Shown piece after piece: positions 1 through 60,730 of a stretch of 64,000 nucleotides of DNA. The notes beneath the pieces are model-generated. The model made no database searches. It saw only the letters and a program-made list of their open reading frames with translations, and was not told the origin of the DNA. The first letter of the stretch is position 1. Each line of letters begins with the position of its first letter. The stretch comes from Blasia pusilla (lineage: Eukaryota): the NCBI GenBank assembly GCA_050084515.1, contig CM114271.1, forward strand, positions 21,142,001 through 21,206,000, in the 5' to 3' direction. The translations under genes were made by a program, and so were the position numbers.

Positions 1-639
1 GTGGAGTGTTGTCCTTTCAGGATACATACATCCTTGGGTGGAGCGAGTACCACACACTATATCACCCCACATGAGGTTGTGGTGAGGATTGGCTCGGGAC
101 ATCCTACATATGAGTCTGTGGTGTGAGCCAAGGCGATAGTGACCGGTGCAGAGTCCTACGACGTCTTGGTTGGTGGAACAATATTGTACCCGATTGGGTT
201 TTCCTTGGATTACTGGGAGGAGTCAACATCCTACAGACCAGAATGACAGTCGAGTGATCGGCGCCTTAGCTCATTACCCATTCGATTCATCGATGGAATG
301 ATCGAGCAACGGCCAAGAGAGATGGCGACCTTAGCGGCATTTAGCAATGGCCATCACTTGGCCTAGTGATTTCATTGAGGGACATGTCCATGCATAGGAC
401 ACTCCCGTTCGTGAAATTTTTGTGGGGAGGAGTGTCATGGTAGCTGCATCATTCCGTGGAGGAGAGGTGCCGCTTTGGGGCTCGACTGAGGAGCTTCGAC
501 GCTTAGTCGTTAAGCATGTGCAGACTACATGGAGCAAGACGTTTGCACAAGAGCATGATGGGTCAGAGGACCCCGAGGTAGCCAAAAGTGCTACTATGAC
601 CCCTTTGGACACCACTCCAATTATGTGGTGCATCCCAGA

Positions 640-1560
640 GGAGGGTATTCACGTGTTGGATCTCTTTGGAAGGATCAGTTTAGTTGTTGTTTTGCAGGCA
701 ACAGTACCTGTACGTTAAGATTGATGATGTTATGAGGTGCACTTCACGTCACCATATAGCGCAGTTATGCCTCCAATTTCCCGACTTCTTCTTTTTGTCC
801 GCCATGGAGGGGTACCAAAGTTCCCTACTGAGGGACATTTTATTGTTGGGACGCACGACTTGGAGCGGGTAGGGATCATAGACTTGGTCATTGCTGGTTG
901 GCCGTGTGAGGGTCAGTCGAGTGTTGGACAGGGTAGCGGACTCTCCGTCCATGTTATTTTGGGAGATGATGCGGATCTTGCAACACTTATAAGAGCATCG
1001 GTCTTGTTCTCTAGGATGCATTCTACAGAATGTGCCAATTTTGGGCAATTCAAGGTCCCAGGTGGTGACGAGTGCACATTAGGTACGTGCATGGATCAGC
1101 CCGGCACTGTTATTGGATGCGGCGCGTGTAGGTTCACGAGCACATCATCCACGTCTTTCGTGGACCAACTTTATGCCACATGAGGTTTTTTGGAGGGCTT
1201 ATGCGAGAGTGGAGCACCCCTCCCATTTGTTGGTGGATTCTATTCTTGATCCAAGTCGCCGATCATAGGCAGTACGACACGATGATCGACCTCCGTTGAC
1301 TATGGTCAACATGATTGGCATGCCACGAGCAGCTTTTCCCACATTGATGAGTTTTCCCGCTTCCTATGCATTCAAGGAGGTAGGGCCTGGCTTGGTTTGG
1401 GATGACTAGGTACAGCGGTTGGTGGAGCCCAATGCCAATGAGCGAGAGTGAGCGATGGGATTCCTCACACGAGTGATGGCAGTACCGTCACTATAAGAGG
1501 TATCATGACATCATGTCTTGGGTCAGGCGATGGACCTAAAGTGCTTGACATGGATTTTCA
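640..1560 (+). pseudogene. DNMT3-like C5 cytosine DNA methyltransferase domain inside the Gypsy polyprotein (disrupted)
   Basis: Motifs occur in the correct order across frameshifts: I 'IHVLDLFGRIS' (647-679), II 'YLYVKID', III 'LLRDI', IV 'DLVIAGWPCEGQS' (881-919), VI 'WEMMRIL..GCILQNVP' (~960-1037), VIII 'LLDAARVGSRAHHPRLSWTN' (1110-1169), IX 'EPNANERE*AMGF' (1425-1463), X 'LGQAMDL' (1518-1538). Confidence 0.9.
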
Positions 1561-4500
1561 GCTTAGGAGTAGTTGAGCAACGTTGTTTGCGGATGCGACA
1601 GATCACAGTTGTTGCATTGGTGAGCCCCATGCCTACCAAGATGGTTGAGGAAGTGGCTAGGGACGAGACTCGAGGAGATCGACACATCAAGGGTGATCGG
1701 GAGAGACATCCTTGGACTTCTTGGGATGTTTTGCAGGTATGCCACAAGATAATAACCACAGCATCGAGCGTGGTTCCGGGTACTACACGTGGAGATCCAA
1801 GTTTGCAATTGGTTGTAGGGGAGCAATTGAGTCATGTTGTCCGAGATGGGGTTGCACCATAGCAACCACCGACACCCGCGCCGGAGAGTCCTATTCTAGT
1901 AACGATGGAGACTTGGGAGCCAGATATGGGCCCTAAGTTGACAAGAGGAGAGCGGCGCCGGATACACCAGTTTTGTAGGAGTTATTGGAGTTGTTTTGCA
2001 TTTAGCATGCATGATTTGGGTACACTGAAGGTTCCAAGCATACGCATTGAGTTGTCGAGCGACACGCCGATCTTTCGACGACCCTATAGATACAGTGACA
2101 TGGAGAGGGCTTTGATTCATAGTAGGAGCCAAGACTTGGTTGGAGCAGCACTACTGGACATGTTCCATGGAGAGTATGCATCTGCCCCTATCATGCCCGC
2201 CAAGAAGGATGTGTATGGCAACTGGACGGATAGGCGGATGTGTGGAGATTACCGACCTATCAATTGGGAGACAAAGTCTGATAGGTATGCCATGCCCACC
2301 CTTGAGGAGATCTTTGATGCTATTGGGCATGCAACGGTCTTCAATTCCTTAGATCTTTGAGTCGGATACCATCAGCTACCTATCAGATTGGAGAACAGGC
2401 AGAAGACGGCATTTTTGGGCATGGATCCTCACGGGAAGGATTGCTTGTACCAATGGCGGTTCTTACCATTTGGGTTAAGGAACGCCCCCGGTGAGTTTCA
2501 GAGGGTCATGGATAGGATCTTGGCAGGTCGAGATTTTTCTAGGTGTTATATTGATGACATCATAGTCTTTAGCACCACATTTGAAGAGCATAAGTGACAT
2601 CTAGAGGAGGTGTTCCGACGATTGCAATTACATGGACTGAACCTTTATCTATGCAAGTGCAAGTTCTTCTACGACCAGATTGAGTACTTGGGTCATGCGA
2701 TATACCCAGGGGGGCTTGGTGTGCAGCAGACGAAGGTAGAGGCTATTTCACGCATTCCATGCCCAACAGATGTGAGTCAAGTTTGTGCATTCATGGGATT
2801 GGCGAACTTCTATCGACGGTACGTCAAGGGTTTCATTTCAATTGCAAAACTGTTGACCTTGCTAACCAAGGTGGATCAGGATTGGCACTAGGGGGATAAG
2901 CAAGAGAGCATTTTAGCTGCTTAGGGACCGATTGACGTCCACGCCCATATTGAGGAGACCGATCAGGGGGAGTCCTTTCCAGTTGCATACCGATTGGAGC
3001 ATGTTGGGGCTTGGAGACGTACTCACCCAGCATGACGATGAGGGTAAAGAGTTCGTGGTGGCTTACACTAGTCGCTTTAACAACGGTGTAGAGGCGAAGT
3101 ATAGCTCATATGAGGGTGAGTGCTTGGCTGCAGTGTGGGTTGTCATACATTTCAGATGTTATCTATTCGGCAATCCCTTTATCATCATTATTGATCACCA
3201 GCCACTTAAGTGGTTGATGGAGTCCGACAAGCTTACAGGGAAGCTGCAAGGTGAGCTCTTCTGTTGTAGGAGTATGACTTCTAGGTGGTGCATATGCTCA
3301 ACCAAGATGCAGATGGTTTGAGCCGTAATCCATGCCCAAGTTGGCGAGATGCAACTGGAGCTCGTTGGCATGATGAGAGTGATGAGGAGTTGGTGCCATG
3401 ATGGCATGCGTCAGCCTACTTGGGCTTGTTGGCTATGGAGAGCCAGATTGCTGAGACTTCGATGGCAAGGTCTGATGGAGAGTCCTTAGATCCAAAGGCG
3501 GGTGAGGAGACAACATGTGGCCAAGACATTCATGACAATGGAGTGGTCTTGGAGTACCTGCGTATTGGCAGCGTTGCAAGCACAGTGGGTGCTAGAGAGC
3601 AGGATCGGATCCTACAGCGAGCCATACGATTCCGATAGAAGGAGGCACATGTGTTACAAGTTTGGGACGATGGTAGAGTGTGTGTAGTGCCTCATCCTTT
3701 TCATAGAGCACGTTTGGTACGTCATGCCAACGAGGAGTATGGTCATTTTCGAGTGAAGCGGACGTAGAGCTTGCTCCAGATACAGTATAGGTGGCAAGGC
3801 ATGCAGACTAACGTTTAGCAGTTTGTCGCTAGGTGCATGGTTTGTGATCAGGTCCGGGCATCGTTCAATGCTCCGACTCCACAGTTGCATCCACTTTGAT
3901 CATGGATTTAGATTATAGATGGAGTTTGGATTTTGAAGGACCTTTATCTTTGACGGAGCGTCATAGTCATTATGTGTTGGTGATGGTCGAGTACTTCTCG
4001 AAGTGGATAGAGTTGGTTGCATTTCCTGACAAAGCGAGTGAGGGAGTAGCGTATGCTTTCCTAGATAGAGTGTTGAGTCATTACGGCGCACCAGCTGAGG
4101 TGTTGAAAAATGAGGGTACAAAGTTTCACGGGGAGTTTCAAGCCTTGTGTGATCAGGCGTTGATCGATCACCGTACCACTTCGCGAGATCATCCAAAGGC
4201 GGATGGACTAGCAAAGCGGGTTGGGCAGACGGTGAAGAGAGGACTACGCAAGTATGGCTTGCAGAGAGGTCACCTAGGAGATTGGAACCTCCAATTGTCG
4301 TGGTTGGCGATGGGTTACAAATTCCGCAGGAAAGCATCCTTAGCGTCTTTCTCACCGTACCTGCAGCTGTTCGTCAAGATGTTGGTGAGGTGTTGAACCG
4401 TGATGACCGTAATGTATGGATGCGAGCAGGTTCTCAGAGGGCTGAGTTATTTTAGAGAGTGATGCCCATGGCGTTTGAGAACTTGGTGATTGCGCAGCAT

Positions 4501-4784
4501 CGAGGTACGTTGAGGTATGCGACTATTCGGGAAGGTGTTTATCGACCTACTATCCGAAGGTTTCATCATAGAGACTATGTCTACTTGCAGCAGACGCCAC
4601 CCACGACGTTGGATGTGACTCCAAGGCGCACCATCTTGAGAGTGCTTGAGGTTTTGCCATGTGGTGTTCTCTTATTGGAGGCACACAATGCTATGGTGTG
4701 GAAGGATCATTTGCCTAACTATGCGCCATGTCATCTTCCTAACATTGACGATTTTGTTGATCCAAGATCAGCAGTAGTTCCTGC

Positions 4785-4935
4785 ATGCTTGCAATGTATG
4801 TTGTTTGATTGTGCCCGTGGTACAACCATTATGCTAGTCTGTGATGGGTGTTCGAGAGGGTGGCCTATGGCATGTCTGACGCCACCTCTCACCAAGGTTC
4901 CTCAGGGACGATGGATGTGTCCTAGATGTACATAG
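4785..4935 (+). other. PHD finger (C4HC3-like, partly decayed) at the C-terminus of the copy 1 integrase
   Basis: 'CLQCMLFDCARGTTIMLVCDGCSRGWPMACLTPPLTKVPQGRWMCPRC'. The intact pattern is seen in copy 2. Confidence 0.85.
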
Positions 4936-5113: not shown

Positions 5114-5860
5114 ATTGGAGATATTTTGGTACTTCGCGTCTCCTTGTTTGGATGCCTTGAGTTAGCATGGGATTGTGCGCGTTTGTGTGTATATTCATTG
5201 ATAGCGATTTATGTTGTGTAGCGATGTGTAGGCGCACGATAACTTTCATGAATTTTAAGATATATATATTGGCGAGATCTAGTAGAGAGCCTTTGGAGAT
5301 ACTCAAGGACAGTCTCAGGAGGTCGAGGATGACATGTTGAGGCCACGGATAACCTGAGAGAGCACGTTTTCCCTTTGTCTCGGCTCATTTGGAGCCATAT
5401 ACAGAAACTTACTATTTCGGTTAAGTTTCCCTTTGGAGTATAGTTGAATTTCCACTTTGGTAAGTTTCCCTTGACCCGCTACAGCATATCAAGAGCCAAG
5501 GAGATGAGCATAGGTTACCGAGGAGAGAGCTAGGGAGAGGGAAGGGAATATACCTCCAAGAGAGAGAGCTTAAGAGCTCATTCTCTCTTTGTTAAACCTC
5601 TTGGCACGTGGCGGCGGAGCTATGGTCATTCTTGCCTTGTGTGTGTAACCCAAGCCTCTCATTAGGAGAGTCGGTTTGGTTTGACATGAGAGAGTGCACA
5701 CCATGGAGAGATTGGTATGAGACATTGATGTGAGATTGGATAGATTTAACCCCATGCACACGAATCAAACGTTAACGTTACAAAGATGGGATCGTGCGTG
5801 TTTGTGTGTATATTAGTTGACAATGTATGTTGTGTATCGATGTATTTTCATACAAAAACA
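5114..5860 (+). repeat. 3' terminal repeats of copy 1: B1 (~5114-5241), 2-bp spacer, A2 (from 5244), partial B2 (~5786-5860)
   Basis: B1 and B2 both match 8713-8839 ('atgggat.gtgcg.gtttgtgtgt...atgttgtgta.cgatgt'). A2 matches 8195-8700. The junction reads cgcacgata|ac|tttcatg. Confidence 0.8.
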
Positions 5861-8194: not shown

Positions 8195-8839
8195 TGTCAC
8201 GTCTTTTAGAATAGATCGGTGAGATCTAGTAGAGCGCCTTCATGAGTAGTAGAAGACAGGCTCAGTAGGTTAAGGATGACCTGTTGAGGCCCCGGGAAAC
8301 CTGAGTGAGCAGGTTTCCCCTTCGTTTCAGCTCATTTGGAGCCATATTGAGGAACTTATTATTTTAGGTAAGTACCATTTTGAGTATATGATCGACTTTA
8401 TATTTTTGGTAAGTGGCCCTTGGCCTCCTACATCAGATCAAGAGCCAAGGAGGTGACTTGGGAGCATAGGTTACCATGGAGAGAGCTTGGGAGAGGGGAG
8501 GGGTATACCTCAAGGAGAGAGAGCTTGAGAGCTCATTCTCTCTTTGTTGAACCTCTTGGCATGAGGCGGCAGAGTTATGCTCTTGTTTGCCTTGTGTCTG
8601 TAACCAAAGCCTCTCATTAGGAGAATGGGTTTGGTTTGACATTGAGAGAGACATGTGAGAGTGCACACATTTGAGAACTATGGTGTTGTGAGAGAGATTG
8701 GATCTTATTTTATTGGAGATTTTTTGGTACTTCTTGTCTCGTTGTTTGGATGCCATGAGTAAGCATGGGATAGTGCGTGTTTGTGTGTGTGTTCGGTGAC
8801 AACGATGTATGTTGTGTAGCGATGTGTATGCGCACGACA
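8195..8839 (+). mobile_element. Solo A-B terminal repeat of the copy 1 Gypsy family
   Basis: TGTCAC...CACGACA; colinear with 5244-5860; flanks TGGT/TGGC (possible 4-bp TSD, one mismatch). Confidence 0.85.
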
Positions 8840-14023: not shown

Positions 14024-14755
14024 TCACCCAACGAGAGCCTTCTCAATTTCTCTGCTGACGGTTTCAGGGGATTTCTCAGCATGAAGATTGGCCACTAGAC
14101 CCTTGCGATCGTAGTAGTTGATAACGGGGGCGGTCTGCTTGTGGAAAGCCTCAAGTCTGCTCTTCAAGACGCTCACCGTGTCGTCCTTTCGCTGGATCAA
14201 CTTCTCGCCTGTAATGTCATCAATCCCGGGCTTTTTGGGAGGGGCGAACTTGGAGTGATACGATCGACCACTGGCAGGATGAATCCACCGACCGGTGATG
14301 CGCTCTTCCAGGATAGAATCTGCAATTTTAAAGTTGAGAACCTTATCCACCTTGACTCCCTTTTCTGCGAGCATTTCATCAAGTTTTTGAGCTTGCACCA
14401 CAGTTCGAGGAAAGCCGTCTAGAATAAAGCCCTTCGCACACGCTGGGCGCTGTAAGGCTTCATCAATGATACCTACCACAAGATCATCAGTCACAAGTTC
14501 TCCCTTGTCCATGGCCTTCTTCGCCATTACTCCCAGGGGAGTTTGGGCAGCCACCGCAGCCCTGAGCATGTCTCCAGTTGCCAGATGACACAAGCAATGT
14601 TGTTCTTTGATCACAGGCGATTGCGTGCCCTTGCCGCAACCAGGTGGTCCGATGAGTATGACACGCTTCTCCGGTTTCGTGGCACATTTCATTCGCCTCA
14701 TCAACTCAGCCATCAACGCGTCGTTGGGAACATCTTCCAAGTTTGGAGACGACAT
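14024..14755 (-). CDS. ADK: Adenylate kinase (plant ADK3/ADK4 type), 243 aa, no intron in the CDS
   Basis: Intact ORF with P-loop '[11 protein letters not shown]', 'HLATGDMLR', '[10 protein letters not shown]', LID '[13 protein letters not shown]' and 'LIQRKDD'; plant-type N-terminus '[11 protein letters not shown]'. Confidence 0.97.
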
Positions 14756-15815
14756 CTCCGGCCGCTCGTGTCACGATGCGACGACGCCTCACCTCTTCGC
14801 AAAGCTTCACTTCAAGAGCTACTCGATGAGTTTCGCAGATGCTCCACTGCAATTCCTCCACCAAGGTGAGTCCCGGCACAATAATGATCCAAGGCTTCTA
14901 CTATTGGCTACCTTCTCTCCATCCCAGTATTTCTCGGTTTCGATCTGACGACTAGCTCTGACCTATCCGAGATCACCACAGGTAGCTGAAGGGTACAAGC
15001 CACATCCTCGTTGCAGAATCCTCCAACGACATAATTCAATACATTAAAGCATAAGCGGCGTTCCAAGCATTTCACCACACTCAGATAAAAGGTGTCTATG
15101 GCATACCAGAGCGCATCGAAAGTGGTAAAGAAGTAGGCGTTGTCGAGCTGGATGATCACGCCGTTCTGCGCAACAGGTCCATCACTCAAACAAGATCAAT
15201 TCGGTGCAAACCTCCAGCCGAGTCAAACCAGCGCCCGCCTCACCGTCGTCCTTTCGATCTTGAGAGTTCCGGCCCTAATGCGTGCACGGAGCGGATTGTT
15301 GCGAAGCTCTGATAGTTCTTCAATTTCCTGCGTCCATGGATCGATTCCACCCTCTTCCGGCCACAAGTCCTCGGTTCTGCAGTAGACGATGTTTGAACCC
15401 GACAGCTTCGACTGAGCCTGTGTTAGGGTTCACTCTCTCATGCCCAGGCAGACAGACGGCAGCCTTCCTCCCGAGGTCAACCAAACACAGTCGATCGATG
15501 CTGCCCTGTGGATGGATGGATGTCCCGGGCAGGCGTTCTTATCGCAACACTCGCGACGAGATCATCAATTTCGCGACCTTCTTGCGAGCGATAGTGACAG
15601 ACTCTCGCTCCCCTTTCCCTCCTCCTCTTCCTCTCTCTGTCTCCTCGTCGCGAGTGCTCTTTTCCTCCCTAATTGTGTCTCCCCTAGTCGGGCCCTTCTC
15701 GTAGCTCTCTATCCACCCCCCTCCTTTGTGTGACCTCCTTTCCATCATGCGTTTTTATTGGAGTTCACCACTCTAAGTAGCTGAAACTAAAACTCTTGTT
15801 TTCCACTTATAACAA

Positions 15816-18680: not shown

Positions 18681-19699
18681 AAGAAAAATTTCCACAATAA
18701 ATTAAAAGCATATATTATTTTTATTCATCCCATAATCTTCATCTATCAAAAGTAATTTTTTTAATATTTTTATTATTACTTGTATTAGGATTAAAACTTG
18801 TAGAATGTTTTCGTAATGTGTCATTTTCAAATGTGAAAACTAAAAAATTATTTATTTGATTTTCAATTAATGAGTTTATGAAGATGTCATTGAGACTTTT
18901 GTAATTAGTCACGTCCAAATTTTTTTAAGATTTTCATCATTTCATCATTTTATCATTACATAATTAATTTATGATAGTTTTTGAAATATTTTTCTAATAT
19001 ACTTCTCCTTTCAATTATAGTAAATTTATTTTTTTTAATTATACCATTGGGAAAAATTGAACTCTTTTTTTGTATGGTACTTATCATTGAAAGTAAAAAA
19101 AAATCCATGAAGACTACATATCCTTTCTTTTGAATGTCAAAATGAATTTAAGTTAAGTTTAGTGCTAAGAATTTCTTACAAAATTTTCCCCTATGTTTTA
19201 AAATATAATTATTCTTCTACATTTCCTCCAAAACAATATTTTGGATGAGAAAAATATGAAATTTTGAAAATGAAATGGGAAGAAGGAAAGAGAATTTTTT
19301 TCAAAAGGACATATAGAGAATTTTGAATGGGGAAAAGGAAGTGAAGAATAAGATAAACTTTTCAAAGGAGCATGCGAGGGTAGGAAGAGAGAAAGGTAAA
19401 AATTTCATAAATTAGGATTTCATAAGGAAAAAATTCTTTAAATATTTAACTTTCAATAAGAGGGAATATTGTGCTTATACATATCTATACATGGACATGT
19501 ATATATATTTAATTTTGATTCACTCCAAAATTCCCCAACTTCTTGTAATCATATTGAACAAATGGTGCTCTCTACAAAGGATGAGGCATCACTTGTACTT
19601 TACCATCCTCCCAAACTAGCAAAACATGTTTCTCCTCCCACTTGAACTAGCTCGCTCTCTATAGGATCTAATCTTACTCTTTGGTATCCACCATGCCCG

Positions 19700-20390
19700 T
19701 TATGATGTCAATGCATAAGTACTTCAAAACTACCGGATCCTTGTGGATATCTCGGTCACCTATCGCCTCTTGACCGTCCTTTTGATGGGGAGACTCTCCA
19801 TCTAACCTAGTCTTCAAAGTTCATGTTGTATAGCTCTTCACGGTCAATAAAGACCAAATAGGAAAATGTGTACCATGCATGCATCATATCCTCATCACTC
19901 TCATAATGTCAATAAGCTCCAATTGCATCTCATTAACTCGTACATAGGCTTCCACTCAAACCATCTATATCTTGATTCAATCTCCTAGGTTGATGTACCA
20001 CTTAGAAATCATACTCCTTCAACAACAAAGCCCATTTGAAAAGTTTCCTTCTAACCTTGTTACATTCCATCAACCATTTTAGTGGTTTGTGATCAATGAT
20101 GAGAATAAAGGGTTATGGAACAAATAACACATGAAATGCGTGACGGCCCATAATGCAGCCAAGCACTCTCCATTGAATGAACTACACTTTGCCTCTCCAA
20201 CATTGTTCAAGATGCTAGTATAAGCCACTATGAATTCCCTACCCTCATTGTCATGATGGATGACAACCGCTCCCAATCCCAACGTGATCAAATTAGTGTG
20301 CAATTGGAAAGGATGCACCCTACGTGGTCTCCTCAACATAGGTACGGATGTCGATGTTGAGCAATTGAAAATGGTCTCTCCTATGTGTTG
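19700..20390 (-). mobile_element. Gypsy RNase H relic of the same lineage as copies 1 and 2
   Basis: ORF 20079-20339 'LRRPRRVHPFQLHTN..TLGLGAV..HDNEGREFIVAY..GECLAALWAVTHF' aligns with 2932-3321. Confidence 0.85.
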
Positions 20391-22629
20391 ATTATTTCCG
20401 CAAAGCTTGTTGCGGATTTTAGCTCAAACCTAAAACATGGCTAAATATGCATCACGATTAATCCCTTGTTGATGGAGTTGAACATGTAGGGAGGGAGAGT
20501 GTTCCCCCCTATAGGTACTTCTAGAGTTCTCCATGGAAACACTACATTCTCCATTTTTTGTCCCAAGCCCTTGATTTTGGCCCCTAACCCAAACGTGGTT
20601 GGTGACCCGCAAACTTGTGTTTGACTAGTTACCCCCCAACTATGAGGCAGAATCTTCTTCTAGATTCTTGCAGATTCCCAAACGCATCTTGGAGCTTGGA
20701 CCCGCATTTTTTTATTTCATGTCGAGGGCTTGTCTTGACTACACCTCTTTCTCGCCTAAAGCTAGTCTCAAGATGCTTGCTTGTTTTGCTTAACTTTAGT
20801 CCCACGACCACTTCCACCTATGTTCCTAATCTTGCGACTAGCTTGTCTAGGTTTCAACTTTGGTGGGTCACACCAAGATCTTTTCTCCTTAGATCAAAAA
20901 TCATGAATTTTTTCTTGAATCCCTACTAGCGTGAGCTCCATAAATTTAACTATTCGCGACACCTTGAGTATATGCTGTGACCTAAAGTGTAACCCAAATA
21001 CACAATCTAGTCATAGAAAAACTTGCAATTGCATGGACGTAACTTTTTCCCACGTAACATCAATCGTTGAAATATCTCTACAAGTTGTTGCTCATGGTAC
21101 TTAACCACGGTACTAAAGACTAGGATGTCATCAATCTAACAATGAGCATAATCCAAGTTTGCCAAGATTCTCTCTACGAACCTTTAAAAATCCTTTGGGG
21201 CAATGATAGAATCTACCTATTCCTCAAGATTAGATGCACAGTATTGATGATGGACCAAGTTGCTCCAATTACAATATTTTATCTTGTCAAACCAAAGCTT
21301 CTCTCATGGAGAGAGGATGGGATTACAGACCAAACAAGGGATATCACAATTTTTTCGCCTCATGCAAAAGAGGTTCAATAAAGAGAGAATGAGCTTCTAA
21401 ACTCTCCCTTTGAAGTATGTCTATCCTCTCTCTCTTCGATGACCCATGCAAGTAACCTCCATGATCCTAAACTTGAAATAGTGAGACGAGTGTCCTTTTT
21501 ATAAATAATAAGGAAAATATCTCGAAATAGAGAACTTGCCTAAAATAGCAAGTTCCTAATTTGTCCCTAGCCTTTCATTGGGAAATGAGATAAGATAATG
21601 AAGGAGGGCACAAGGGAAAAAAAGAAGAAGGTAGAAACACACCCTTTCCATTCATCCACATAATAGAGGTATCCAAAGGATAGAGATTGAAAATAAATTT
21701 CATGAGTAGATTAGAGAGATTGAATGATTTAATATGATATGGAACTGGCATATATGAAATGGGAAAGAATACTAGAGTTTTTCTAGAGGTTCTCTCCTAA
21801 AGGTTTGAGTCTCTCTAAAACAATACATCTCACAACACATGAACACTATAAATATGAAATGGAATCCGAATTTCAATTATATAATTTCTCTTTTAAGTGC
21901 TTCTTTGTTATTATTTAATTTAGAAAACAATCATAATTAAACCCTTTCTAGCAATGATTAGTTAGTGTGTCCATGTTTGCGTACTAAAATGATTTTAAAA
22001 GTAATTTCTAAATATTTTCATTTCAAAATTTAAATATGATGTCCACTTTCTTAAATCTTAAAAGAGTAACAACATTCCAATCTTCTTAATAATTCGATCG
22101 CTTCATAAAAGTTTAAAGCTTACATACTCCTCCCCTTCCACTCCTTCCACGAAAGTAACACCCACTAGCTATTTCATTGGTTAATCTAAATTAATGAAAT
22201 CATTTTCCTCTACCATTCAAATTCATTTCCTAAAATATCAAATGTATATTAAGGGAAAAACTTATAAAATTTTTATTATTTATCTTTTTATGTCATTATT
22301 TTATCTTATTGTGCATATAAGGTAGTCAATAATAATATAATTTTAAAAATAACAATTAATAAAACTAGTAAGGATCCTAAGGGACCATGCCATATACTCT
22401 TTGGGTTTAATAATTCAAGTTTTAATGTCACTCTTCTTACTATTCTCCCTACTAGCGTAAGCGCTTGCAATGCACGTGTTTATATTACCTTCCTTATTTA
22501 ATTCTCAAATGCCATTTCAAATCAATTTTGAATGATTTTAAGAATTCAAAAGGCAAACCATCCCATTAACTAAAAATGTCAAAAGGAGAGGAGTTTGCAA
22601 AATCAAGAGACACTCAATAATAAGAGAAA

Positions 22630-37633: not shown

Positions 37634-40600
37634 TGTCGTACGAATCCACATCGTCATAAAACATACATCGCTGACATACCATACTCATATACATACATAA
37701 CATAGACGAGAGCATCCACAAACACAAGTGTACCACAACTCGAAATCTGTGAAAGATCTACTGTCATGAAACACGTATAGAATCACATACAATCGAGCCA
37801 AACCCACTCCACCATGGGAGAATCTAGGTCGAAGCTTGCGGGAATCACCATAGCCAAGAGCTCTACTCACTACCAAGGCTAACTCCCAACGCAACAAGCT
37901 CAACTCAAAGAACTAACTATTCTTTGAGTGCACTCCACACTATATCCTCCAACCTAAGAGCAGACCCTACTGGAAAAGTCACCCTCAACTGAATAACCCC
38001 CAACCCTATGTATGAAACCGCACCTCTGCTTGGACACTACGGCCCTACATAAGGTATGGCCTCTACTAGCACACTATATTTTATGACATAATCCGTCATG
38101 ACAACTGTCGTGCGAATCCACATCGTGATACAACATACATCCCTCATATATCATACTCACATACATACATAACATAGACGAGAGCATCCACAAACACAAG
38201 TGTACCACAACTCGTCCCCCAAACTCTCTAACTCCCAAGTAGCCCTAGACATCTACTACATGCTATACACCTTCCTAGGTGTAGGATTCAGAAGGCCGGG
38301 TGCTAGGTTAACCCATCGTTAGTCGCACATGTGTAATCCATATCATGCAAAGATCAAGTCATCTACCTCTCCTAAGTACATCGAGGACAAACCCACCTTC
38401 CAGTAGGAACAACATCCATACGTGGAGTCAAACACATCATGTGCCAACCCCTAGAACACCGATCACACACCAACATAGGGGTTGCGTTACCAGCAGACCC
38501 ACACAACATGTCGCGACCCTCATGACCAAACAAGTGCCAAGAGGAACATCGGAACATTAGCGGGCTCACGCTAAGATGGTTTGCGCGTTGGAGTTGTCTC
38601 AAAGAGGAGACAAGATACGAGACGCGAACGAGGAGTCGCGTTTCAAGTGTTATGGTCGCGACTGAGAAACCAGGACCAAACGCGGAATGAGACTTGAAAG
38701 AAGTCGAGTCTAGGAAGTGGGTTGCCAAAAGGAAGATCCGGATCCGGATTAGGATCCGGATCCGAATTAGGAACGCCACTAGCGTTTGAGAGTTTCCGAC
38801 TGTATTTATGGCCATAACTTTTAACGCTGAGATGCATTTGGAGCAAATAAGGGTGCGTTGGAAAGCTTATGGAGAGCCGGTCCAAGCGCACCAAAAATCG
38901 CTTCAAACGCATAAGCAGCGGCCGAGATACGACCCGAAAACGACTGTAAGTGGAGTCGGGTTGAGGGCCACAATGAAGGGCCCGACCCTCTTTTCCCAAA
39001 GGGGAGGGGTTATTGGAGAACCCCAGAAGTACTAGTAAGGGGGAAGGTCTCCGAGAGTGCTTGGAACCCAAACCCCACTTTGGGCGCCGCGGGGCGGCTC
39101 AAGGGCATGGAACGGAACGCGAGTTTGGTCGTTGGGTTGGAAAACCTGCACCAAGTCCATTGAGGCAATTTTAGACATCCCTCTTGGATTTCACGCCGCG
39201 ACTCAATTACTTGGTTCTCGGTTCGGAACTCACACGAGGACCGTTGAACAGTTGGGATCGCTAGGCGTGCAAGTGCCGTTTCAGATCCCTGGACTAACCA
39301 GGAAGTCTGTTCCAAGTCTTGAAGGACTTGCCATGTTTTGGAAGCTAGGAACTAAGGAAGGTTGAGCTTGATGAGACGCCGAGTCAAGGACTCGGTGGGT
39401 TGGAACGCCGGTTGGCCCAGACCCGACTAACGAGAGTGCGTGTTTGGATGCAGATCGGCGATGAGTTCGTGACCTACTGAACGCACGCTTCCGTAACACT
39501 AAAGATTGACGTTCAACGAGAGTAGGGGCGCGACACAACATGCACCTCAAGCTAGCACGTATCATGGCTAAGCTTGGGTCAACAGTACCATCCACATTTG
39601 GTAGATGACATGGCGCACAATTACGCACATGGTCCCTCCAAATAACTCCATCACGAACCTCTAACATGAGAACTCCATAAGCTAACACCTCGCGCACTCG
39701 TAAAATACTGCGGCTTGCCACCACATCTAACGTTTTCAGTGCAATCTGCTGCAAATAGACATAGTTCCCCACATGGAACCTACAAATCAATGGTCGATAA
39801 CCTCCACCCCGAATGGTTGCATACCGCAACGTATCCCAGTGTTGAGCAATGGCAAGATTCTCAAAGGCTGTTGGCATAATTCTCCGAAAGAGCTCTGCCC
39901 GTTGAGAACACATTCTCATCCACATCTCTGGGTCATCAAGGTTCACCATCTCACTAGACTTCGGACGAATTTCTGGTGGCAAGTCTGGATCTCGGCCGTA
40001 TAACAGAAAATAAGGTGAGAAGGAAGCCAAGGATGCTTGGCGACTGAACCTATACCCCATGGCTAACCATGGCAACCGAATATCCCAGTTTCCAAGATGC
40101 CCCTTCTGTAGGCCATACTTGCGCAATGACCTCTTCACCGTCTGAACCACACGCTCAGCCAAACCATCCGCCTCTAGATGATCTCGAGACGTGGTCCAAT
40201 GATCAATCAATACCTTGTCACACAAGACCTGAAACTCACCCTGAAACTCTGTACCCTGGTCGGCCAGCACTTCAGCTAGTGCACCAAAATGACTAAGCAA
40301 AATGATTTGCCTTGTCAAGTAATGCCAACAACTCAATCCACTTGGAGAAGTGCTCCACCATCACCAACACATATCGATGATGTCGTACACTCAACGGTAA
40401 CGGACCCGCAAAGTTCACACTCCAATGGTAACCCAACCCCATAATAGGCAAAGGGTGTAACTGTGGTGTAGGGGCATTGAATGATGCCCTCACCCGGTCA
40501 CAAACCATACAACGTGAAACCAATTGCTGCACCTGAGTATGCATGCCACGCCACCAATACTGACCAAGGAGTAAGCTATACGTACGCTTTACCCCAAAAT

Positions 40601-43139
40601 GTCTCAACTCCTCATGGGCATGTCGCACAATGCGCTCTCTCTGAGCCAAATGCGGCACCACTCGTACTCTACCATCCTCTCATACACGGAGAATATGTGT
40701 TCTCTCCAATCGATACCTCTTAGCACGTTGAAGAACACGGTCTCGCTCCTTAGCACTCACTATGCCTCGCACCCTACTGGTCCGTAGGAACTCTAACACC
40801 AACGCATCATCATGAATATCATGTTGATCCATACCACCATCTCCAACCTTAGGATCTGAAGGCTAGCCATCTACCCTCTGACTAGAGTAAGATGTCATGT
40901 GGTCCTCCATACTAGAGTCCACCCCTAACCAACATAAAAAGGCAGATGCATGCCAACCTGGCACCATCTCCTCATCAACCTCGCCATGCCATCTAGCCCT
41001 AGTTGCATCCTCTTGGCTAGTATATGGGTTCCTACTCAACCCATCAGCATCAAGGTTGGCAACTCCATGTCTTCCATCAACCACTTGAGCGGCTGGTGAT
41101 CAGTAACAAGGGTAAACTGTGTGCCAAACAAGTAACACCTAAAGTCTACCACAACCCACACTACTGCCAAGCACTCTCCCTCATATGAACTATAGCGCAA
41201 CTCCGCTGCATTATTTGAACAACTTGCATAGGCCACCAAAAACTCCATGTGCTCATCATCATGTTGTGTCAACACCACTCCAAGTCCCAACCTACTCCAA
41301 TCAGTGTGTAACTGAAATGGGCGCCCTCTGATAGGTCTCCTCAAGATAGGCGCCGTCACCAACTGGGCCTTGAGCTCCAAAAAAGCTCTCTCCTGATCAT
41401 CTCCCCAGTGCCACTCCTAATCTGATTTCAGAAATTGGTTCAAAGGCTTTGCCATAACACTAAATCCCTTCACATACCTCCGATAGTAGTTCGCCAATCC
41501 CATGAATGCCCGAACTCTACTCAAATCTACCGGACGAGGAATAAGTGCAATAGCCTCCACCTTTGCTTGTTGAACTCCCAAACCACCTGGATAGATCACA
41601 TGACCCAAGTACTCGACATCCTCATGGAAGAACTTACACTTTCTTGGATGCAAACGTAGACCATGAGCTTTCAACCGCTCAAATACAAACTGAAAATGTA
41701 TCTGATGATCCTCCACCGTGTTACTGAACACCAAGATATCATCAATGTAACACCCAACAAAATCCAACCCTGCTAGGATCCTGTCCATCACTCTATGAAA
41801 CTCGGTAGGTGCATTCTTCAGCCCAAAGGGTAAGAATTTCCACTGGTACAAACAATCCTTGCCATGAGAGTTGACACCCCAAAATATTGTCTTGGCCTTG
41901 TCACTCTCTTGAATTCGCAACTGATGGTATCCTGCTCGAAGATCCAAAGTACTGAAAATCTTTGCCTGTCCCACCACATCAAAGATCTCCTCAGGTGTAA
42001 GCATGGCATACCTATCGGCCTTGGTCTGCTGATTGATAGGACGGTAATCTCCACGTATCCGCCTATCCGTGTAGTTGCCATGCACATCCTTTTTAGCACG
42101 CATGATAGTGGCTGATGCATACTCTTCATGCGAGAACTCCACTAATCCAGCCTCCAAAAGGTCCAACGTCCTACTCTGAATCAGGTCCCTCTCCATATCA
42201 CTATATCGGTAGGGATGACAGAAGATTGGCGAATCAGTAGCCAAATCAATCCGTATACCGGGTCCAACCAAAGCACCCAACTCCTTCATGCTAAAGGCAA
42301 AACAACTCCTATAAGCACGTAGGAATTGTGTCAAGCGTCGTTTCTCACCTCCCCTAAGCTTGGGCCCAAATAACGGCTCCCAAGTCTCCTCCATCGGCAC
42401 ACTAGAGGGAGAGGACGACGCCATTGGCTGCTATGCAACCCCCTCACAAGATGGTACACCCTTAGCTACACCATCATCTGAGCAAATAACTCCTCCAGCA
42501 GCATGAGCAACCAACTCCACATGCCCAGCCATTACGAACCAGAGTCTTCAATCCTTGATAACTTCCAACTCCCTTAACAAAATCCAGCAATCTAAAGCGC
42601 ATTGGAAAGCTCTAAGCAAGGCGCTTCTTTGCTAGCCAACCACACACCAGATTCATACCTCCAACATAGGCCACAAGCTACGAACATCCATGGTTGAGTA
42701 CACAATCAGCCCTAACCAGATCCTAGTGATCCACGATCGAAGCTACCATCGATCTACTCCAGTTCTTTGAGTGAAATCCGTGAAAGACCTACTGTCATAA
42801 AACACGTATAGAATCACATACAATCAAGCCAAACCCACTCCACCATGGGAGAATCCAAGTCGAAGCTTGCGGGAACCACTATAGCCAAGAGCTCTACTCA
42901 CTACCAAGGCTAACTCCCAATGCAACAAGCTCAACTCAAAGAACTAATTGTTCTTTGAGTGCACTCCACATTATATCCTCCAACCTAAGAGCGGGCTCTA
43001 CTGGAAAAGTCACCCTCAACTGAATAATCCCCAACCCTATGTATGAAACCGCATCTCTACCTAGACACTACGGCCCTACATAAGGTATGGCCTCTACTAG
43101 CACACTATACTCTACGACATAATCCGTATGGTCATGACA
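37634..43139 (-). mobile_element. Ty3/Gypsy copy 2 (RT-RNaseH-IN-PHD; gag, PR and DNMT absent) with split direct repeats A1...B1-A2-B2
   Basis: RT ORF 41417-42424 ('YIDDILVFS'), RNase H 41036-41380, integrase HHCC and core 39540-40661, PHD 38372-38508 plus 39536-39550. A1 42773-43139 matches A2 37742-38103; B1 38106-38214 matches B2 37634-37742. Termini TG...CA; flanks CCAT/GCAT. Confidence 0.93.
38509..39535 (+). mobile_element. Solo LTR (~1.0 kb family) inserted in the PHD finger of Gypsy copy 2, TSD CAACA
   Basis: CAACA|TGTCGCG...CGCGACA|CAACA. Removing it restores 'LRCMLCGSAGNATPMLVCDRCSRGWHMMCLTP..GRWVCPRC'. Confidence 0.95.
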
Positions 43140-47722: not shown

Positions 47723-50700
47723 TGTTAGATAAATACATTTTAGATAAAGGTGTTCGACTTAAAATGTGTTAAAGGAACTACCTAAATGCTGCTACTCTTA
47801 GCAATCCGACATCTAACCTAAGACACTTGATCACTTGACTAGAAGGGCCACTTGGTCAGTTGGCTACTTGGCCACTTGACCACTTGGCCACTCAACCATA
47901 GAGTATCTTATCTCTAGCCACTATCCAGATTAGTATATAGTCTGGGGCTTGAATAAACATCATACTTGAAGTTCTCCATAAAGTTTAGATGTAGGTTTAC
48001 CATTGTATCATTACCATTGTGTATACATCTCTCATATATTTCTAACAAGTTATGGGCCTGAATGGGAATCACGATGGTTTCCATGTTGGAATCTTTGATG
48101 GTTCTGACTGGAAAGAGTGGAAGAATCGTGTTCACAATCTTCTTGTTTACAGAGATTTATGGGACGCAGTTGCTAAATGAGTATATAATACATCTGTGCC
48201 AGATGCGTCACCTACCTCTCCTTCTGAAAGTGCAGATAAAGCACCTCAAGTATATGTTCATCAACATATACTTCAAACACGGACTATTCAGCAGAATGAA
48301 AAGTTAGAAAATCAGGCTCGCGCTCTGATTTGTTTACATTTGATATGAGAACCTCTGGCTCTAACAGAACATCTTGATACAACTCAAGAATTATGGGCCT
48401 GCCTATATCGTAATTATGATACGACAGGTTCATTCTCTTTACTACACTTACAAGCGTCCATGTACAAACTCACTGTTGAATCTTGCAGATCACCTCAAGA
48501 TTTTCTGTCACAACTCAAGATTACTGCAAATAATCTTGCATCCGTAGGATCTCCTGTTCCAAACACACATCTATTCACTTTTGCAATTAGCAAACTTCAT
48601 GCTGAATACAAATCTCTCATTCACGTATTGATGTAGAAAGATAAACCTTCTTTTGACGATCTTCAAACTGGAGTATTGTATGATTCTGAACTGGATAACC
48701 TTCCAAATTTGAAAGTATTCTAGTTTCCAATTCTATTCATAATTCTACCAAGAAACGTCTATTTAAGTCTATGTTTACTAAGTATCAAAGAAAAATTCCT
48801 CAGAGGAATGCCAAACAGCCTTATTGTTACATTTGTAACGAGAAAGATCACATCTCAAGCAAATGTCCTAACAGAAAATTTCTCAAGAAATTTTGTGAGT
48901 ATTGCAAAACTCAAACATAAGATATCTCATCTTTGCTAGTCAATACTTCACCTATCACTCAAGCATTAACACGCTCCACATGTGAGGAGCTACAACCACA
49001 TGAACCACTCTATCTGTTCATGATACAAAGATCCTCTACATCTCTTTCCCAGATCTTTCCAAACTTTGGATCCTTGATTCTGGTTCAAATTCCCATGTTT
49101 GTTGTCAAAGAGAATTGTTCTCTAATTTCCTTCCTATTTCTCCAATTCTCATTTCTGGAATAGGCAATGGCAAAATATATGCTACAGCTACTGGGAATGT
49201 TCAATTAAAGCTTTTTGTCAAAGGCTCTTTGGAATTACATACTCTTTCCAATGTTCTGTTCATTCCTACAAGACAACACAATATTGTTTTTGTGAAGAAA
49301 CTTGTTGAAAGTCTATAGATATCCTTTTCTATTCTCACAATATGTCTTTTGAACAAGCAAGGTCATTGTTTAGGTACAGGTTTTGCCAGGCATGGCATGT
49401 ATCTAATTGAATGTCAATCTTGTACTCCATCGATAATTTTGATAGCCAGAAGTTCATCCAATCTCTGGCACAATCATATGGAACCTCTCAACAATCAGCA
49501 TTTATTGCAACTACATCAACAAAAAATGGTTCAAGGTCTAGATCATATCAATGATCTCAATTTCTGTACAAACTGTGTTAAAAGCAAGCTCATCAGGCAA
49601 CATATCACAGGAGATGGACAAGATCTTCTTGTTCAAAAGGCTCTAGATCTGATTCACAATGATCTACCAGGACCAATGAAGACACCCAGTATTAGAAACG
49701 CCTACTATTTCTGTACTTTTCTTGACCAATATACAAAGAAATCCTTTGTCTATATTCTTCACAAGAAGTCAGATGTCTTTTCTACATTCCAGAAGTTCAA
49801 AATCATGGTTGAGAAAGAAACCGGTCTCCAGATTCGTGTTCTCAAAATAGATGGAGGTGGTGAATACATAGACTCTTCTTTCCAAGTCTTTCTTCAGACT
49901 TTTGGTATTCTTCATCAACGCATAGGAAGAGATTCTCCTATGTAGAATGGATCTGCTAAAAGACTCAACCACACACTACAGGAAAAGGCAAGATGTATGC
50001 TCATTCACATGCGCCTTTCTATATCATTTTGGGGAGAAGCAATTGTTACAGCTAACTATCTTCGAAACTTGAGTCCTACTCAAACTCTTTCAACAACACC
50101 TTCTGAAGCTTGGAGTGGTCTCAAACCTACTCTCACATATCTTCGAGTGTTTGGATGTCAATAATTTGCTCTCATTCCAGTTGAGAGAAGAAGAAAGATG
50201 GATTCTACGGGTGAAGAATGTATATTCCTTGGTTATCATATTGGTTCTAGATGTTATAAACTTTTCAATCCCAATACAAAACGTGTTTTTCTTAGCAAAG
50301 ATGTTGTCTTCAATGAAGATACTCCTTTCACCTTCTCTCTTGTTGTTCACTCTACTTATTCTCCATTTTTTTATTCTTTCCCAGTAGAAAACTCTGAACC
50401 GATAACTGTCCCTAAAGCAATTAAAAAAAAAACTACAGTTCAGAAAAATATTTAAATAGTGGGAGATACTTCAAGAAAAATAGGTGTTGTTGCTTTAGAG
50501 AAATCCATGGGACATTTTCCCACGTATTTTCATCCTAGGCGATCATCATGAACATCTGTACCAGTACATATGTATGATACTGCTTGCTCAAACATTCCTC
50601 TCTCTTCTTGTATCCAATCTGATCCACTCACAAGAACAGAAGCCCTCTCTAGATCAGATTCTCATGGTGGCAAACTGCTATGGAAGCTGAAATTTCCTCT

Positions 50701-52660
50701 CTTCATGAAAACAAAACATGGATTCTTGTGACAAATCCTAAAAAGCGCAAGTCATTCACATATACTACCAATATAGTCTCTTGTAAATGGGTTTTTAAGA
50801 TCAAGCGGTCTTCTTCAGGAAGTATTCTCAAGTACAAAGCCAGGCTAGTAGCCAAAGGTTATTCACAGAAAGAAGGAATTGATTACAAAGAAACATTTTC
50901 TCCTGTCATAAATATCACTTCTCTCCGGATGCTGCTTTCCATTGCTGTTGTTCGCAACGCTGAACTACATCAAATGGACGTCAAGATTGCTTTTTCTTCA
51001 TGGTGATCTACAAGAAATTATATATATGCATCAACCTCCCGGTTTTGAGGTAACTGATCAAGGTCCACATGTATGTCTTATGAAGAAAGCTCTTTATGGC
51101 TTGAAGCAATCCTCCCGAGCTTGGTATCAAAAGATGGATAGATATTTGACTTTTGCATGTTTTCTCAGAAGTACTTATGATCCTTGTTTGTATCACAAAC
51201 GATCTTCTACAGATCAATTACTCATAATTTCTATATATGTAAATGATCTTGCTATTATAGCAGATAATCGCATTCAGCTACAACAATTTAAAATTCATGT
51301 TCAGTCCATTTTTAAAATGGTTGACGTGGGAGAGCTTCATCACTTGTTATGACTTCAGGTGGTAAGAGACAGGGCACGTCACAAGATTTCTTTGCATCAA
51401 AAAAGGTATATCTGTGAAAAACTTGTAGAATTCGGTATGAAATATTTTCATACAGTTTCTACCCCTTCTATGTCTGGGACAACATTGTCCAAGCCCACAT
51501 CTGCTCCTACAAGTGATGATCTTGCTCATTTTCAGCAATATCCATATGCTACGATAGTTGGAAGTCTTATGTATGCTTCAACCATGACTCATCTTGACAT
51601 CTCTTTCAGTGTCGGCCAGTTATGTAAATACATGTCCAACTATTCTATTGAGCATTGGCAAGCTGCCAGGCATGTTCTAAGGTATTTGAAGGGAACTTCC
51701 AATATGGGTATCACCTTTGATGGTTCCACCCATGATTTTACTCTTCAGGCCTATGTAGATGCAAGTTTCGCTTCTTCTAAAGATGATAGAAAATATATTT
51801 CAGGATTTGTTCTTATCATGGCACGAGGTGCAGTACATTGGGCCTCAAGGAAGCGGGCACAATTCTTGCAGTCTACTATAGAAATTTGAATATATAGCCC
51901 TTAATGAGGGCATCAAAGAAATACTTTGGATTCGACATTTACTTGCTGAGATTGGTTTTTTACTGCAAACTCCAACAATTCTTTACAAAGACAATCAAGC
52001 TGCAATTCAACTATCAAATAATTTTTGTTCCAATTCCAAAATTGGACATTTGGAACTAAAATACTTCTTCATATCAGAACACATTCAACAAAAAAATATT
52101 CGTCTACAAGAATGCAGATCTTTAGTTCAGGCTGCTGATGTTTTGACTAAAAGTCTATCTAAAGGCCAACAGTATTTTTTACTCCAAATATTAGGATGTA
52201 GGATATGCAACTGAGTGGGAGATACGACACTTTTCGAGTAGACAGCTGCATGTTCTTCCAACTAGATTATCCTAGCTCAGTGGGAGTGTTAGATAAATAC
52301 ATTTTAGATAAAGGTGTTTGACTTAAAATGTGTTAAAGGAACTACCTAAATGCTCCTACTCTTAGCAGTCCGACATCTAACCTAAGACACTTGATCACTT
52401 GACTAAAAGGGCCACTTGGTCAGTTGGCTACTTGGACATTTGGCTACTTGCCCACTTGACCACTTGGCTAAAAGGGCCACTTGGCCACTTGGGTACTTGG
52501 CCACTCAGCCACAGACTATCTTATCTCTAGCCACTATCCAGATTAGTATATAGTCTAGGGCTTGAATAAACATCATACTTGAAGTTCTCCATAAAGTTTA
52601 GACGCAGCTTTACCATTGTATCATTACCATTGTGTATACATCTCTCATATGTTTCTAACA
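47723..52660 (+). mobile_element. Full-length degenerate Ty1/Copia retrotransposon, LTRs 47723-48047 and 52287-52660, TSD TATTA
   Basis: TG...CA LTRs; PBS 'aGTTATGGGCC'; zinc knuckle 'CYICNEKDHISSKC'; protease 'WILDSG'; integrase 'LDLIHNDLPGP', 'DGGGEY'; RT 'KARLVAKG', 'HQMDVK', 'ALYGLKQSSRAW', 'IYVNDL'; RNase H 'AYVDASFA'; PPT 'agtgggag'. Confidence 0.97.
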
Positions 52661-54041: not shown

Positions 54042-54605
54042 TGCCAAATATTTTAGGATGGATCGATGAGAATCTATAGCACGCGTTCAAGGAGATTAGA
54101 GGATAGTCTCAAGTTGGTTGAGCATGATCTATTGAGGCCTTGGATAACCTGAGAGAGGAGATTTCCCCTTTTTTTGGCTCATTTGGAGCTTATCGAGGAA
54201 CTTACGATTTCAAGTAAGTTCTTATTAGAAGCATATTTGACTTCAGCCTTTGCCCCTACAACAGGAAATAAGCAAAGAAAGGAACGTGTAAGCACAAGAT
54301 ACCGTAGAGAGAGCTTTGGAGTTCATTCGATCATTGTTGAACCTCTTGGCATGAGGCGGCAGAGATATGGTCCTCCTTGCCTTGTAAGTAACCAAAGGCT
54401 CTCATTAGGAGAGTGGGTTTGGTTTGACATGAGATAGAAATGAAGATTATGTGCACCATTGGAGCGATGTTGATTTATTCAAGATATTTTGGTATAGGAT
54501 TTCTTCAGTATTCAGATGTCATGTATGAGTGTGTTATCTTATGTTTATCTGTTTGCAGTCAATGATAAGGATGTATGTTCTGTAGTAATGTGTATGCACG
54601 TGACA
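54042..54605 (+). mobile_element. Diverged solo A-B repeat of the copy 1 Gypsy family
   Basis: Shares 'ggctcatttggagc', 'gaacctcttggcatgaggcggcagag' and 'ctctcattaggaga..gggtttggtttgacat' with 8195-8839; ends CACGTGACA; flanks CTTC/CCTC. Confidence 0.8.

Positions 54606-55729: not shown

Positions 55730-60730
<5,001 letters not shown>

Follow-up and report, generated by a model that had tools for sequence, protein, structure and literature searches.

A decayed Ty3/Gypsy retrotransposon of Blasia pusilla with the probable remnant of a DNMT3-type cytosine methyltransferase, and its intact relatives in liverworts and Sphagnum mosses

The closest described systems are the retrotransposon-encoded cytosine methyltransferases of de Mendoza et al. 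(2018, Nat Commun 9:1341; PMC5890265), namely KnitGypsy-Dnmt3 of Klebsormidium nitens and the SymbioDIRS-Dnmt3 and SymbioLINE-Dnmt elements of Symbiodinium. As the text of that paper presents them, the isolated SymbioDIRS-Dnmt3 domain carries out de novo CG methylation in yeast, and the Gypsy-Dnmt3 combination is reported in K. nitens only, as an acquisition "in the K. nitens lineage"; the printed example from the plant lineage is this charophyte alga alone, with an inconclusive activity test (PMC5890265). Two later papers speak of "streptophytes" in passages that cite the 2018 work (PMC12344493; preprint 10.64898/2026.05.21.726589). Here, we describe a 64,000-nucleotide stretch of the Blasia pusilla genome, hereafter the window (GCA_050084515.1, contig CM114271.1, positions 21,142,001 to 21,206,000 of the forward strand; all coordinates below are those of the window). 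Our reading, in which we have high confidence, is that positions 1 to ~5700 (+) are an old, dead copy of a Ty3/Gypsy long terminal repeat (LTR) retrotransposon whose 5' end lies beyond the window edge, and that 347–1655 within it is the remnant of a DNMT3-type cytosine-C5 methyltransferase belonging to the element family itself.

The decayed Ty3/Gypsy pol of this element (copy 1) extends from the window edge to ~4935 (+) and, by Pfam and tblastn, keeps the Gypsy order of protease (PR), reverse transcriptase (RT), RNase H and integrase (INT). The C-terminal part of the aspartic protease occupies 1–348 (+), where tblastn frame 1 matches residues 661–779 of P0163 and 140–192 of P0157 across two in-frame stops. 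A stop-interrupted RT follows at 1863–2891 (+), with Pfam RVT_1 scores of 39.9 bits (2361–2597) and 17.9 bits (2598–2891) and 61.5% identity to P0165 by tblastn. RNase H lies at 2917–3321 (+; RT_RNaseH, 96.9 bits), and the integrase catalytic core at 3848–4396 (+; rve, 32.3 bits against a cut-off of 32.6, E = 1.3e-07), the integrase being 70.7% identical to P0177 by tblastn. The C-terminal end of pol is a PHD finger at 4822–4929 (+; PF00628, 29.2 bits, cut-off 24) within an open reading frame (ORF) at 4456–4935. Between the protease C-terminus and the RT sits the methyltransferase relic with its upstream linker (347–1655, +), the position in a Gypsy element that the initial annotation had assigned to it. 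The polyprotein order of the family is gag-PR-DNMT-RT-RNaseH-INT-PHD; gag and the 5' LTR of copy 1 fall outside the window, the element being cut by its edge. In the intact relative P0180, the RT-RNaseH region matches the Ty3 Gag-Pol structure 7q5b at E = 3.5e-101.

A putative 3' LTR of copy 1 lies at 5114–5694 (+), with TG...CA ends at ~5116 and ~5686; the assignment is tentative, as no partner LTR is present inside the window. This ~580-nt unit, directly 3' of copy 1, is repeated at 8211–8837, 54100–54442 and 60259–60623 (−). In a DNA sequencing run carrying the same species label, more than 60 reads contain head-to-tail joints of the unit (5687 or 5694 to 5114) and its depth is raised; the repeat is therefore also arranged in tandem somewhere in the genome.

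The relic retains C5-methyltransferase motifs I, II, IV, VI, VIII, IX and X, collinear at 653–1547 and alignable to intact relatives; the motif strings quoted in the initial annotation were all located there, on the + strand and in order. Motif I, which binds S-adenosylmethionine (SAM), reads 'VLDLFGRIS' at 653–679 (frame 2; 'LDLFGGIS' in intact relatives), and motif II reads 'YLYVKIDD' at 705–728 (frame 3). Motif IV, with the catalytic cysteine, is 'DLVIAGWPCEGQS' at 881–919 (frame 2), where close intact relatives have 'GWPCQG'. Frame 3 then carries the peptide 'SMLFWEMMRIL' (948–980), motif VI 'CILQNVPIL' (1017–1043), in which the glutamate of ENV is replaced by glutamine, and motif VIII 'LLLDAARVGSRAHHPRLSWTN' (1107–1169). 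Motif IX, 'EPNANERE*AMGF' at 1425–1463, includes an in-frame stop, and motif X, 'HHVLGQAMDLKCL' at 1509–1547, includes 'VLGQAMDLKCL'; both are in frame 3, and the motif IX–X block as a whole (1425–1547) holds in-frame stops.

Decay has reached the catalytic residues: from relatives to relic, LDLFGG has become LDLFGR, GWPCQG has become GWPCEG and ILENV has become ILQNV. The frame path over 1–1730 runs 1, 2, 3, 2, 3 (2, 3, 2, 3 for the relic and its upstream linker, which the family profile matches), with 11 in-frame stops, 9 of them from 353 onward. With at least three frameshifts and nine stops between 353 and 1730, both an open frame and an intact catalytic set are absent. Copy 1 is dead, in agreement with the initial annotation, and has no present function.

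Identification of the relic comes from its intact relatives, and its homology to them is secure and far above chance. The intact Calypogeia fissa protein P0157 aligns to 699–1730 by tblastn at 49% identity over 348 residues (E = 2e-100), with further collinear pieces at 353–943 and 133–291. A profile built from 30 relatives and run against the six-frame translation of the window matches 699–1655 (E = 2.5e-93), 347–715 (E = 4.6e-10) and 845–946 (E = 1.4e-07), and nowhere else in the six frames. Homology to relatives, with the linker and C-terminal tail included, spans 353–1730; the extent first proposed for the domain, 640–1560, lies inside this stretch and is somewhat shorter. A phmmer search of 1.84 billion representative sequences with 933–1568 (212 residues, six stops written as X) returned 699 proteins at E ≤ 1e-3, of which 17 reached E ≤ 1e-30; Gypsy polyproteins with a significant PF00145 match are numerous among the 699.

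Three results count against our reading of copy 1. The relic has no PF00145 match at E up to 10, whether its ORFs are searched one by one or its three frames are read through in full with stops written as X; PDB sequences searched with 933–1568 by phmmer likewise give nothing at E ≤ 10. In addition, RNA reads under the same species label (59–81 placed per run, from 10–12 million records) fit copy 1 patchily: 84–85% continue into unlike sequence, and almost none lie over 601–1600. The reads therefore derive from related copies, with no sign that copy 1 is transcribed. Since the relic fails both the PF00145 and the PDB sequence searches, its identity rests on its relatives: the initial annotation had looked to PF00145 for confirmation, and it is the intact relatives that pass that profile, while the unrepaired frames of the relic do not. 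The frames were left unrepaired and homology was argued through the intact proteins; judged from these alignments, the relic is a C5-methyltransferase family member by descent and not by its own Pfam score.

Intact relatives carry the domain within a single Gypsy Pol ORF, in the arrangement of which copy 1 is a collinear relic. P0016 (2188 residues) encodes, in one ORF, zf-CCHC, aspartic protease, PF00145 (46.1 bits against a cut-off of 22), RVT_1, RNase H and integrase; P0180 (2358 residues) has the same single-ORF layout with a terminal PHD finger, and its methyltransferase scores 32.5 bits. Close relatives P0157, P0159, P0163 and P0165 score 35.2, 34.9, 35.6 and 35.1 bits for PF00145, and the Marchantia gene model MARPO_0091s0058, arranged PR-DNMT-RT-RNaseH, also passes. 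The methyltransferase is thus the family's own domain, collinear with the domains of intact Gypsy polyproteins from liverworts, Sphagnum mosses and uncultured eukaryotes.

A different origin was considered, in which a fragment or pseudogene of a host DNMT3 inserted once, into one copy of a family otherwise devoid of the methyltransferase. The one foothold for this idea is another copy of the family, also present in the window. Copy 2 (37742–43127, −) consists of RT-RNaseH-INT-PHD between two LTRs (37742–38096 and 42773–43127; 355 nt, 93.5% identical); it shares ~70% nucleotide identity with copy 1 over RT-INT, its RT is 70–78% identical to methyltransferase-bearing Marchantia proteins, and its PHD finger scores 39.7 bits with Pfam. 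The methyltransferase profile finds no match in copy 2, a result that counts against the domain being the family's own. However, gag and PR are absent from copy 2 as well, and just ~230 nt separate its 5' LTR from the start of homology ahead of the RT; because gag and PR are missing too, copy 2 is probably a non-autonomous internal deletion derivative and not a representative of a domain-less lineage. Moreover, gene models of Marchantia, Calypogeia and Sphagnum share the PR-DNMT-RT junction, as do complete polyproteins of 2188–2358 residues, and the linkers that flank the domain are conserved on both sides. With the junction shared by relatives and the linkers conserved, a one-off insertion was rejected; we regard its probability as close to negligible. 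The initial annotation had named a one-off insertion as the outcome that would undo its proposal, and the same-layout relatives that pass PF00145 (P0016, P0180 and MARPO_0091s0058) speak for a family trait instead.

The arrangement of the domain was surveyed in a census of 285 fetched proteins with any domain-profile match, a set biased toward matches and including some near-duplicates. A methyltransferase with a flanking pol domain was present in 120 of these. In 56 of the 120 the methyltransferase adjoins PR or RT, as in the window (type A), and one is ambiguous. A second layout, RT-RNaseH-DNMT-INT-PHD (type B; P0178, P0034, P0048, P0182 and others), accounts for 63 of the 120, all from metagenome or run assemblies. 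Type B forms make up one group (Shimodaira–Hasegawa-like approximate likelihood ratio test, SH-aLRT, 87) nested among PR-DNMT-RT forms, and the layout label needs two changes; it therefore appears that about one relocation of the domain within pol took place. Look-alikes in a protein atlas gave no usable taxon for the type B hosts, the best score being 0.79, which serves as a lead only.

Comparison with solved structures places the family nearest to DNMT3, the affinity that the initial annotation had proposed from motif style. Against PDB sequences, the 30-member profile scores highest with DNMT3A (91 bits, E = 6e-25), DNMT3C (83 bits) and DNMT3B (80 bits), ahead of tobacco DRM (50 bits), M.HhaI (38), Arabidopsis DRM2 (37), M.HaeIII (33) and DNMT2 (23); no chain named as DNMT1 or chromomethylase occurs among the 57 profile–PDB matches at E ≤ 1. 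In the profile–DNMT3A alignment, motifs I–II, IV–VIII and IX–X follow the same order; the motif VIII block aligns with DNMT3A 'DAKEV-SAAHRARYFWGNL' and the motif IX–X block with DNMT3A 'EMERVFGFP...LLGRSWSV'. An AlphaFold model of P0158, a metagenome protein 59% identical to the relic, has a predicted local distance difference test (pLDDT) score of 79.5 and a predicted template modelling (pTM) score of 0.79, and every match listed by Foldseek for this model is a DNMT3A, DNMT3B or DNMT3C chain (E ~1e-17; target TM-score 0.77–0.84 for chains of the catalytic domain). On profile scores and predicted fold, then, the family resembles DNMT3A/B/C most, ahead of DRM and the bacterial enzymes.

The basis of the DNMT3 assignment is a score ranking and a fold, not a class-level tree, and this counts against it, although the assignment is supported on both. 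A C5 methyltransferase of other descent (bacterial, phage, giant-virus or another eukaryotic class) could score best against solved DNMT3 structures: PF00145 spans all classes, and the protein-atlas look-alikes of the type B domain include phage clusters, again at the score of 0.79 that makes them a lead only. Set against such a descent, DNMT3A/B/C lead DRM by 30–40 bits and the bacterial enzymes by more than 50 and fill the Foldseek list; the DNMT3-style blocks of motifs VIII and IX can be matched residue by residue; and de Mendoza et al. (2018), in the text of PMC5890265, grouped the Klebsormidium Gypsy domains with Dnmt3. We consider a non-DNMT3 origin very unlikely and retain the DNMT3-type assignment. 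PWWP and ADD domains were not found by Pfam in the polyproteins scanned, which have the PHD finger after integrase instead.

Conservation across the family argues for selection on catalysis. Among 100 non-redundant members, some only ~30% identical to one another, the catalytic cysteine is kept in 99, the glutamate and asparagine of ENV in 100 and 98, the two motif VIII arginines in 97 and 98, and the Glu-Arg-Glu of motif IX in 100, 92 and 99. In 33 of the 100, which include both layouts, motif IV has GWECQ for GWPCQ, with glutamate in place of the near-universal proline that precedes the catalytic cysteine. This substitution may tell against a working enzyme, and we know of no Gypsy-borne DNMT3 with demonstrated methyltransferase activity. 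Also on that side, no methylation was seen in yeast with the Gypsy domain of Klebsormidium, a result that the authors call inconclusive in the text of the paper, human DNMT3B having failed there too (PMC5890265). The substrate of the intact domain might accordingly be RNA, as for DNMT2, or the domain might bind DNA or act in regulation without catalysis, in the manner of DNMT3L, and both the inactivity of the Klebsormidium domain in yeast and the motif IV replacement would fit such a role. However, retention of the cysteine, ENV and motif VIII arginines in 97–100 of 100 members at ~30% identity is unexpected for a pseudo-enzyme, and among solved structures the nearest relatives act on DNA, with DNMT2 reaching just 23 bits; we consider a role other than DNA methylation unlikely.

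In intact elements, the domain would instead be an active SAM-dependent DNA methyltransferase, synthesized within Pol and released or placed by the protease of the element. Its targets would be the element's newly made complementary DNA, the pre-integration complex or DNA at the insertion site. The element may in this way pass as host-like methylated DNA, keep its own expression down or benefit in some other manner. The initial annotation had also suggested that the lineage could be a source of DNMT genes in a land-plant genome; no evidence for this emerged.

The second chromatin-related module is the PHD finger, which Pfam detects in both copies in the window, in 41 of the 285 census proteins and, from precomputed Pfam assignments, in 7 of the 22 long relatives listed. 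The best solved matches of the P0180 PHD finger are KDM5 PHD1, PHF12, KAT6A, DPF3, CHD4, BAZ2A/B, PHF21A and AIRE, which are readers of unmodified histone H3 lysine 4 (H3K4). By analogy with the chromodomains that steer chromoviruses, the finger would direct integrase toward chromatin in which H3K4 is unmethylated. That a methyltransferase and a PHD-type histone reader occur together is reminiscent of the ADD and catalytic domains of DNMT3, an analogy only. Retrotransposon PHD fingers as such are already known, according to work cited in the text of PMC6673714.

Named carriers of the family are the liverworts Calypogeia fissa, Marchantia polymorpha, M. paleacea and Riccia sorocarpa and the mosses Sphagnum fallax, S. 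troendelagicum and S. tenellum. Many M. polymorpha gene models are among them (e.g., Mp_8g17980, Mp_4g09160, Mp_6g11220, Mp_2g26090 and MARPO_0091s0058). The initial annotation had treated such a domain as no standard part of land-plant Gypsy elements; the family is not rare in land plants, given the many Marchantia, Calypogeia and Sphagnum gene models that carry it. No vascular plant is named among the matches listed (22 in each of two long-relative searches, and the best 120 of 338). By simple pattern matching, all six screened motifs are present in 4 of 29 named bryophyte proteins, the others being fragments or decayed; several M. polymorpha gene models keep every methyltransferase motif screened.

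A quick maximum-likelihood tree of the domain (101 rows, family members only) places the window piece in a 10-row clade with Calypogeia and Marchantia (SH-aLRT 99), its best identity being 62%, to Calypogeia; this placement points to a probable liverwort host. Metagenome sequences 77–85% identical to P0158 group with Marchantia, with Calypogeia outside them, and P0158 itself is 84% identical to a Sphagnum troendelagicum protein. Since these P0158-like sequences nest inside liverworts, the domain tree departs from the moss/liverwort split; the mismatch could reflect old sublineages or transfer between bryophytes.

A link to the algal elements is provided by the K. nitens gene model KFL_008410050 (P0193), which the family profile detects at E = 4.7e-11. 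BLASTP aligns it collinearly with P0180 from the protease as far as the N-terminal part of the methyltransferase (E = 2e-18), and hhalign returns a 98.4% probability over 227 columns that take in the PR end, the linker, DNMT motifs I–II and a family-specific stretch ahead of motif IV. These alignments suggest that the bryophyte elements and KnitGypsy-Dnmt3 probably share one PR-DNMT fusion; if the fusion is shared, the family is an old streptophyte lineage and not a new capture. On the other side, the link consists of one gene model that ends inside the methyltransferase domain, without RT and with 14% identity by hhalign, and KFL_008410050 is unconfirmed as one of the KnitGypsy-Dnmt3 copies of de Mendoza et al. 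(2018). Bryophyte and Klebsormidium elements may thus have captured DNMT3 independently, or have exchanged it by horizontal transfer. The truncation and low identity of the sole linking gene model leave room for this; so do the recurrence of DNMT capture by retrotransposons, as related in the texts of PMC5890265 and preprint 10.64898/2026.05.21.726589, and the nesting of P0158-like, Sphagnum-related sequences in liverworts, off the species tree. Yet both have the domain inserted at one and the same point, immediately after PR, and collinearity extends over the end of PR, the linker and the N-terminal part of the DNMT, with the motif II–IV stretch 'YP.LLP...LPQDI' included. We judge independent capture or exchange to be somewhat unlikely, and a single shared fusion remains the preferred reading.

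The kind of element is thus already known (de Mendoza et al., 2018), and what is new is its membership in land plants. Liverwort or moss Gypsy-DNMT3 elements are named in no paper found by full-text search, with supplements, subscription journals and the Marchantia genome paper outside that search. The novelty belongs to the family as a whole, to the PHD finger and second layout that it shows and to its occurrence in Marchantia, and not to the dead copy described here. We put forward, tentatively and as a possibility that falls somewhat short of probable, that Gypsy-DNMT3 is an old streptophyte lineage persisting in liverworts and Sphagnum, and that it joins an epigenetic writer (of DNMT3 type) to a reader (a PHD finger of the type that binds unmethylated H3K4). 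On this view, a sister form in uncultured eukaryotes has the domain relocated to the junction of RNase H and integrase. If true, the element would arrive equipped with a counterpart of the module that the host uses for de novo methylation. This presents the puzzle of a transposon bearing an enzyme that hosts use for transposon silencing. As elements of this kind are common in bryophytes, including M. polymorpha, for which genetics, methylome maps and methyltransferase mutants exist, the question is testable in a model land plant. A practical consequence concerns annotation: these transposable-element domains are labeled "DNA (cytosine-5-)-methyltransferase" in public records and can inflate counts of host DNMT genes.

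The window has further features. A Copia-type element lies at 47723–52666 (+), with direct repeats at 47723–48053 and 52287–52666 (93–94% identical) and an ORF at 49319–49945 that contains gag_pre-integrs and rve. At 19500–21200 (−) lies a piece of RT/RNase H from a Gypsy family further removed, with 33–52% identity to the relatives compared here, and 44 residues at 60732–60863 (−) match the N-terminus of Marchantia polyprotein gene models. Within transposon-rich surroundings, 14024–14770 (−) encodes a complete adenylate kinase in an uninterrupted 248-codon frame (PF00406, 192.8 bits, with the lid domain), which could be an intronless gene or a retrocopy.

Among known systems, KnitGypsy-Dnmt3 of K. 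nitens is the nearest: as described in the text of PMC5890265 (de Mendoza et al., 2018, Nat Commun 9:1341), it is likewise a Gypsy element with an unrearranged DNMT3-type domain in the Pol ORF. In the K. nitens gene model KFL_008410050, the DNMT follows directly after PR, as in the bryophyte family. The present elements differ in that the host is a land plant of liverwort type and the named relatives are liverworts and Sphagnum, in their low identity to the algal protein and in the dead state of the window copy; the family also ends in a PHD finger, which the main text of PMC5890265 does not mention. SymbioDIRS-Dnmt3 and SymbioLINE-Dnmt of Symbiodinium are retrotransposon-encoded cytosine methyltransferases too, and the DIRS one is DNMT3-like; however, they belong to the DIRS (tyrosine recombinase) and LINE classes and to another eukaryotic supergroup, and are independent captures in the account given in the text of PMC5890265.

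Host DNMT3 enzymes, such as mammalian DNMT3A/B/C and moss DNMT3 (Yaari et al., 2019; PMC6453930), share with the family the motif order I–X and the motif VIII and IX blocks, and are its top profile and fold matches. In contrast to the host enzymes, the family domain is embedded in a retrotransposon Pol, with the PHD finger ~1000 residues away, after integrase; its motif VIII–IX stretch is also longer than that of DNMT3A (profile 307–393 versus DNMT3A 185–246). Plant DRM is, like the family, a DNMT3-related catalytic domain in streptophytes, but its motifs are circularly rearranged whereas the family order runs from I to X, and DRM chains score 50 and 37 bits against 91. Finally, chromoviruses and PHD-bearing retrotransposons resemble the family in carrying, C-terminal of integrase, a chromatin reader that is thought to steer integration. 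Compared with chromoviruses, the reader of the present family is a PHD finger and not a chromodomain, and it is combined with a DNA methyltransferase.

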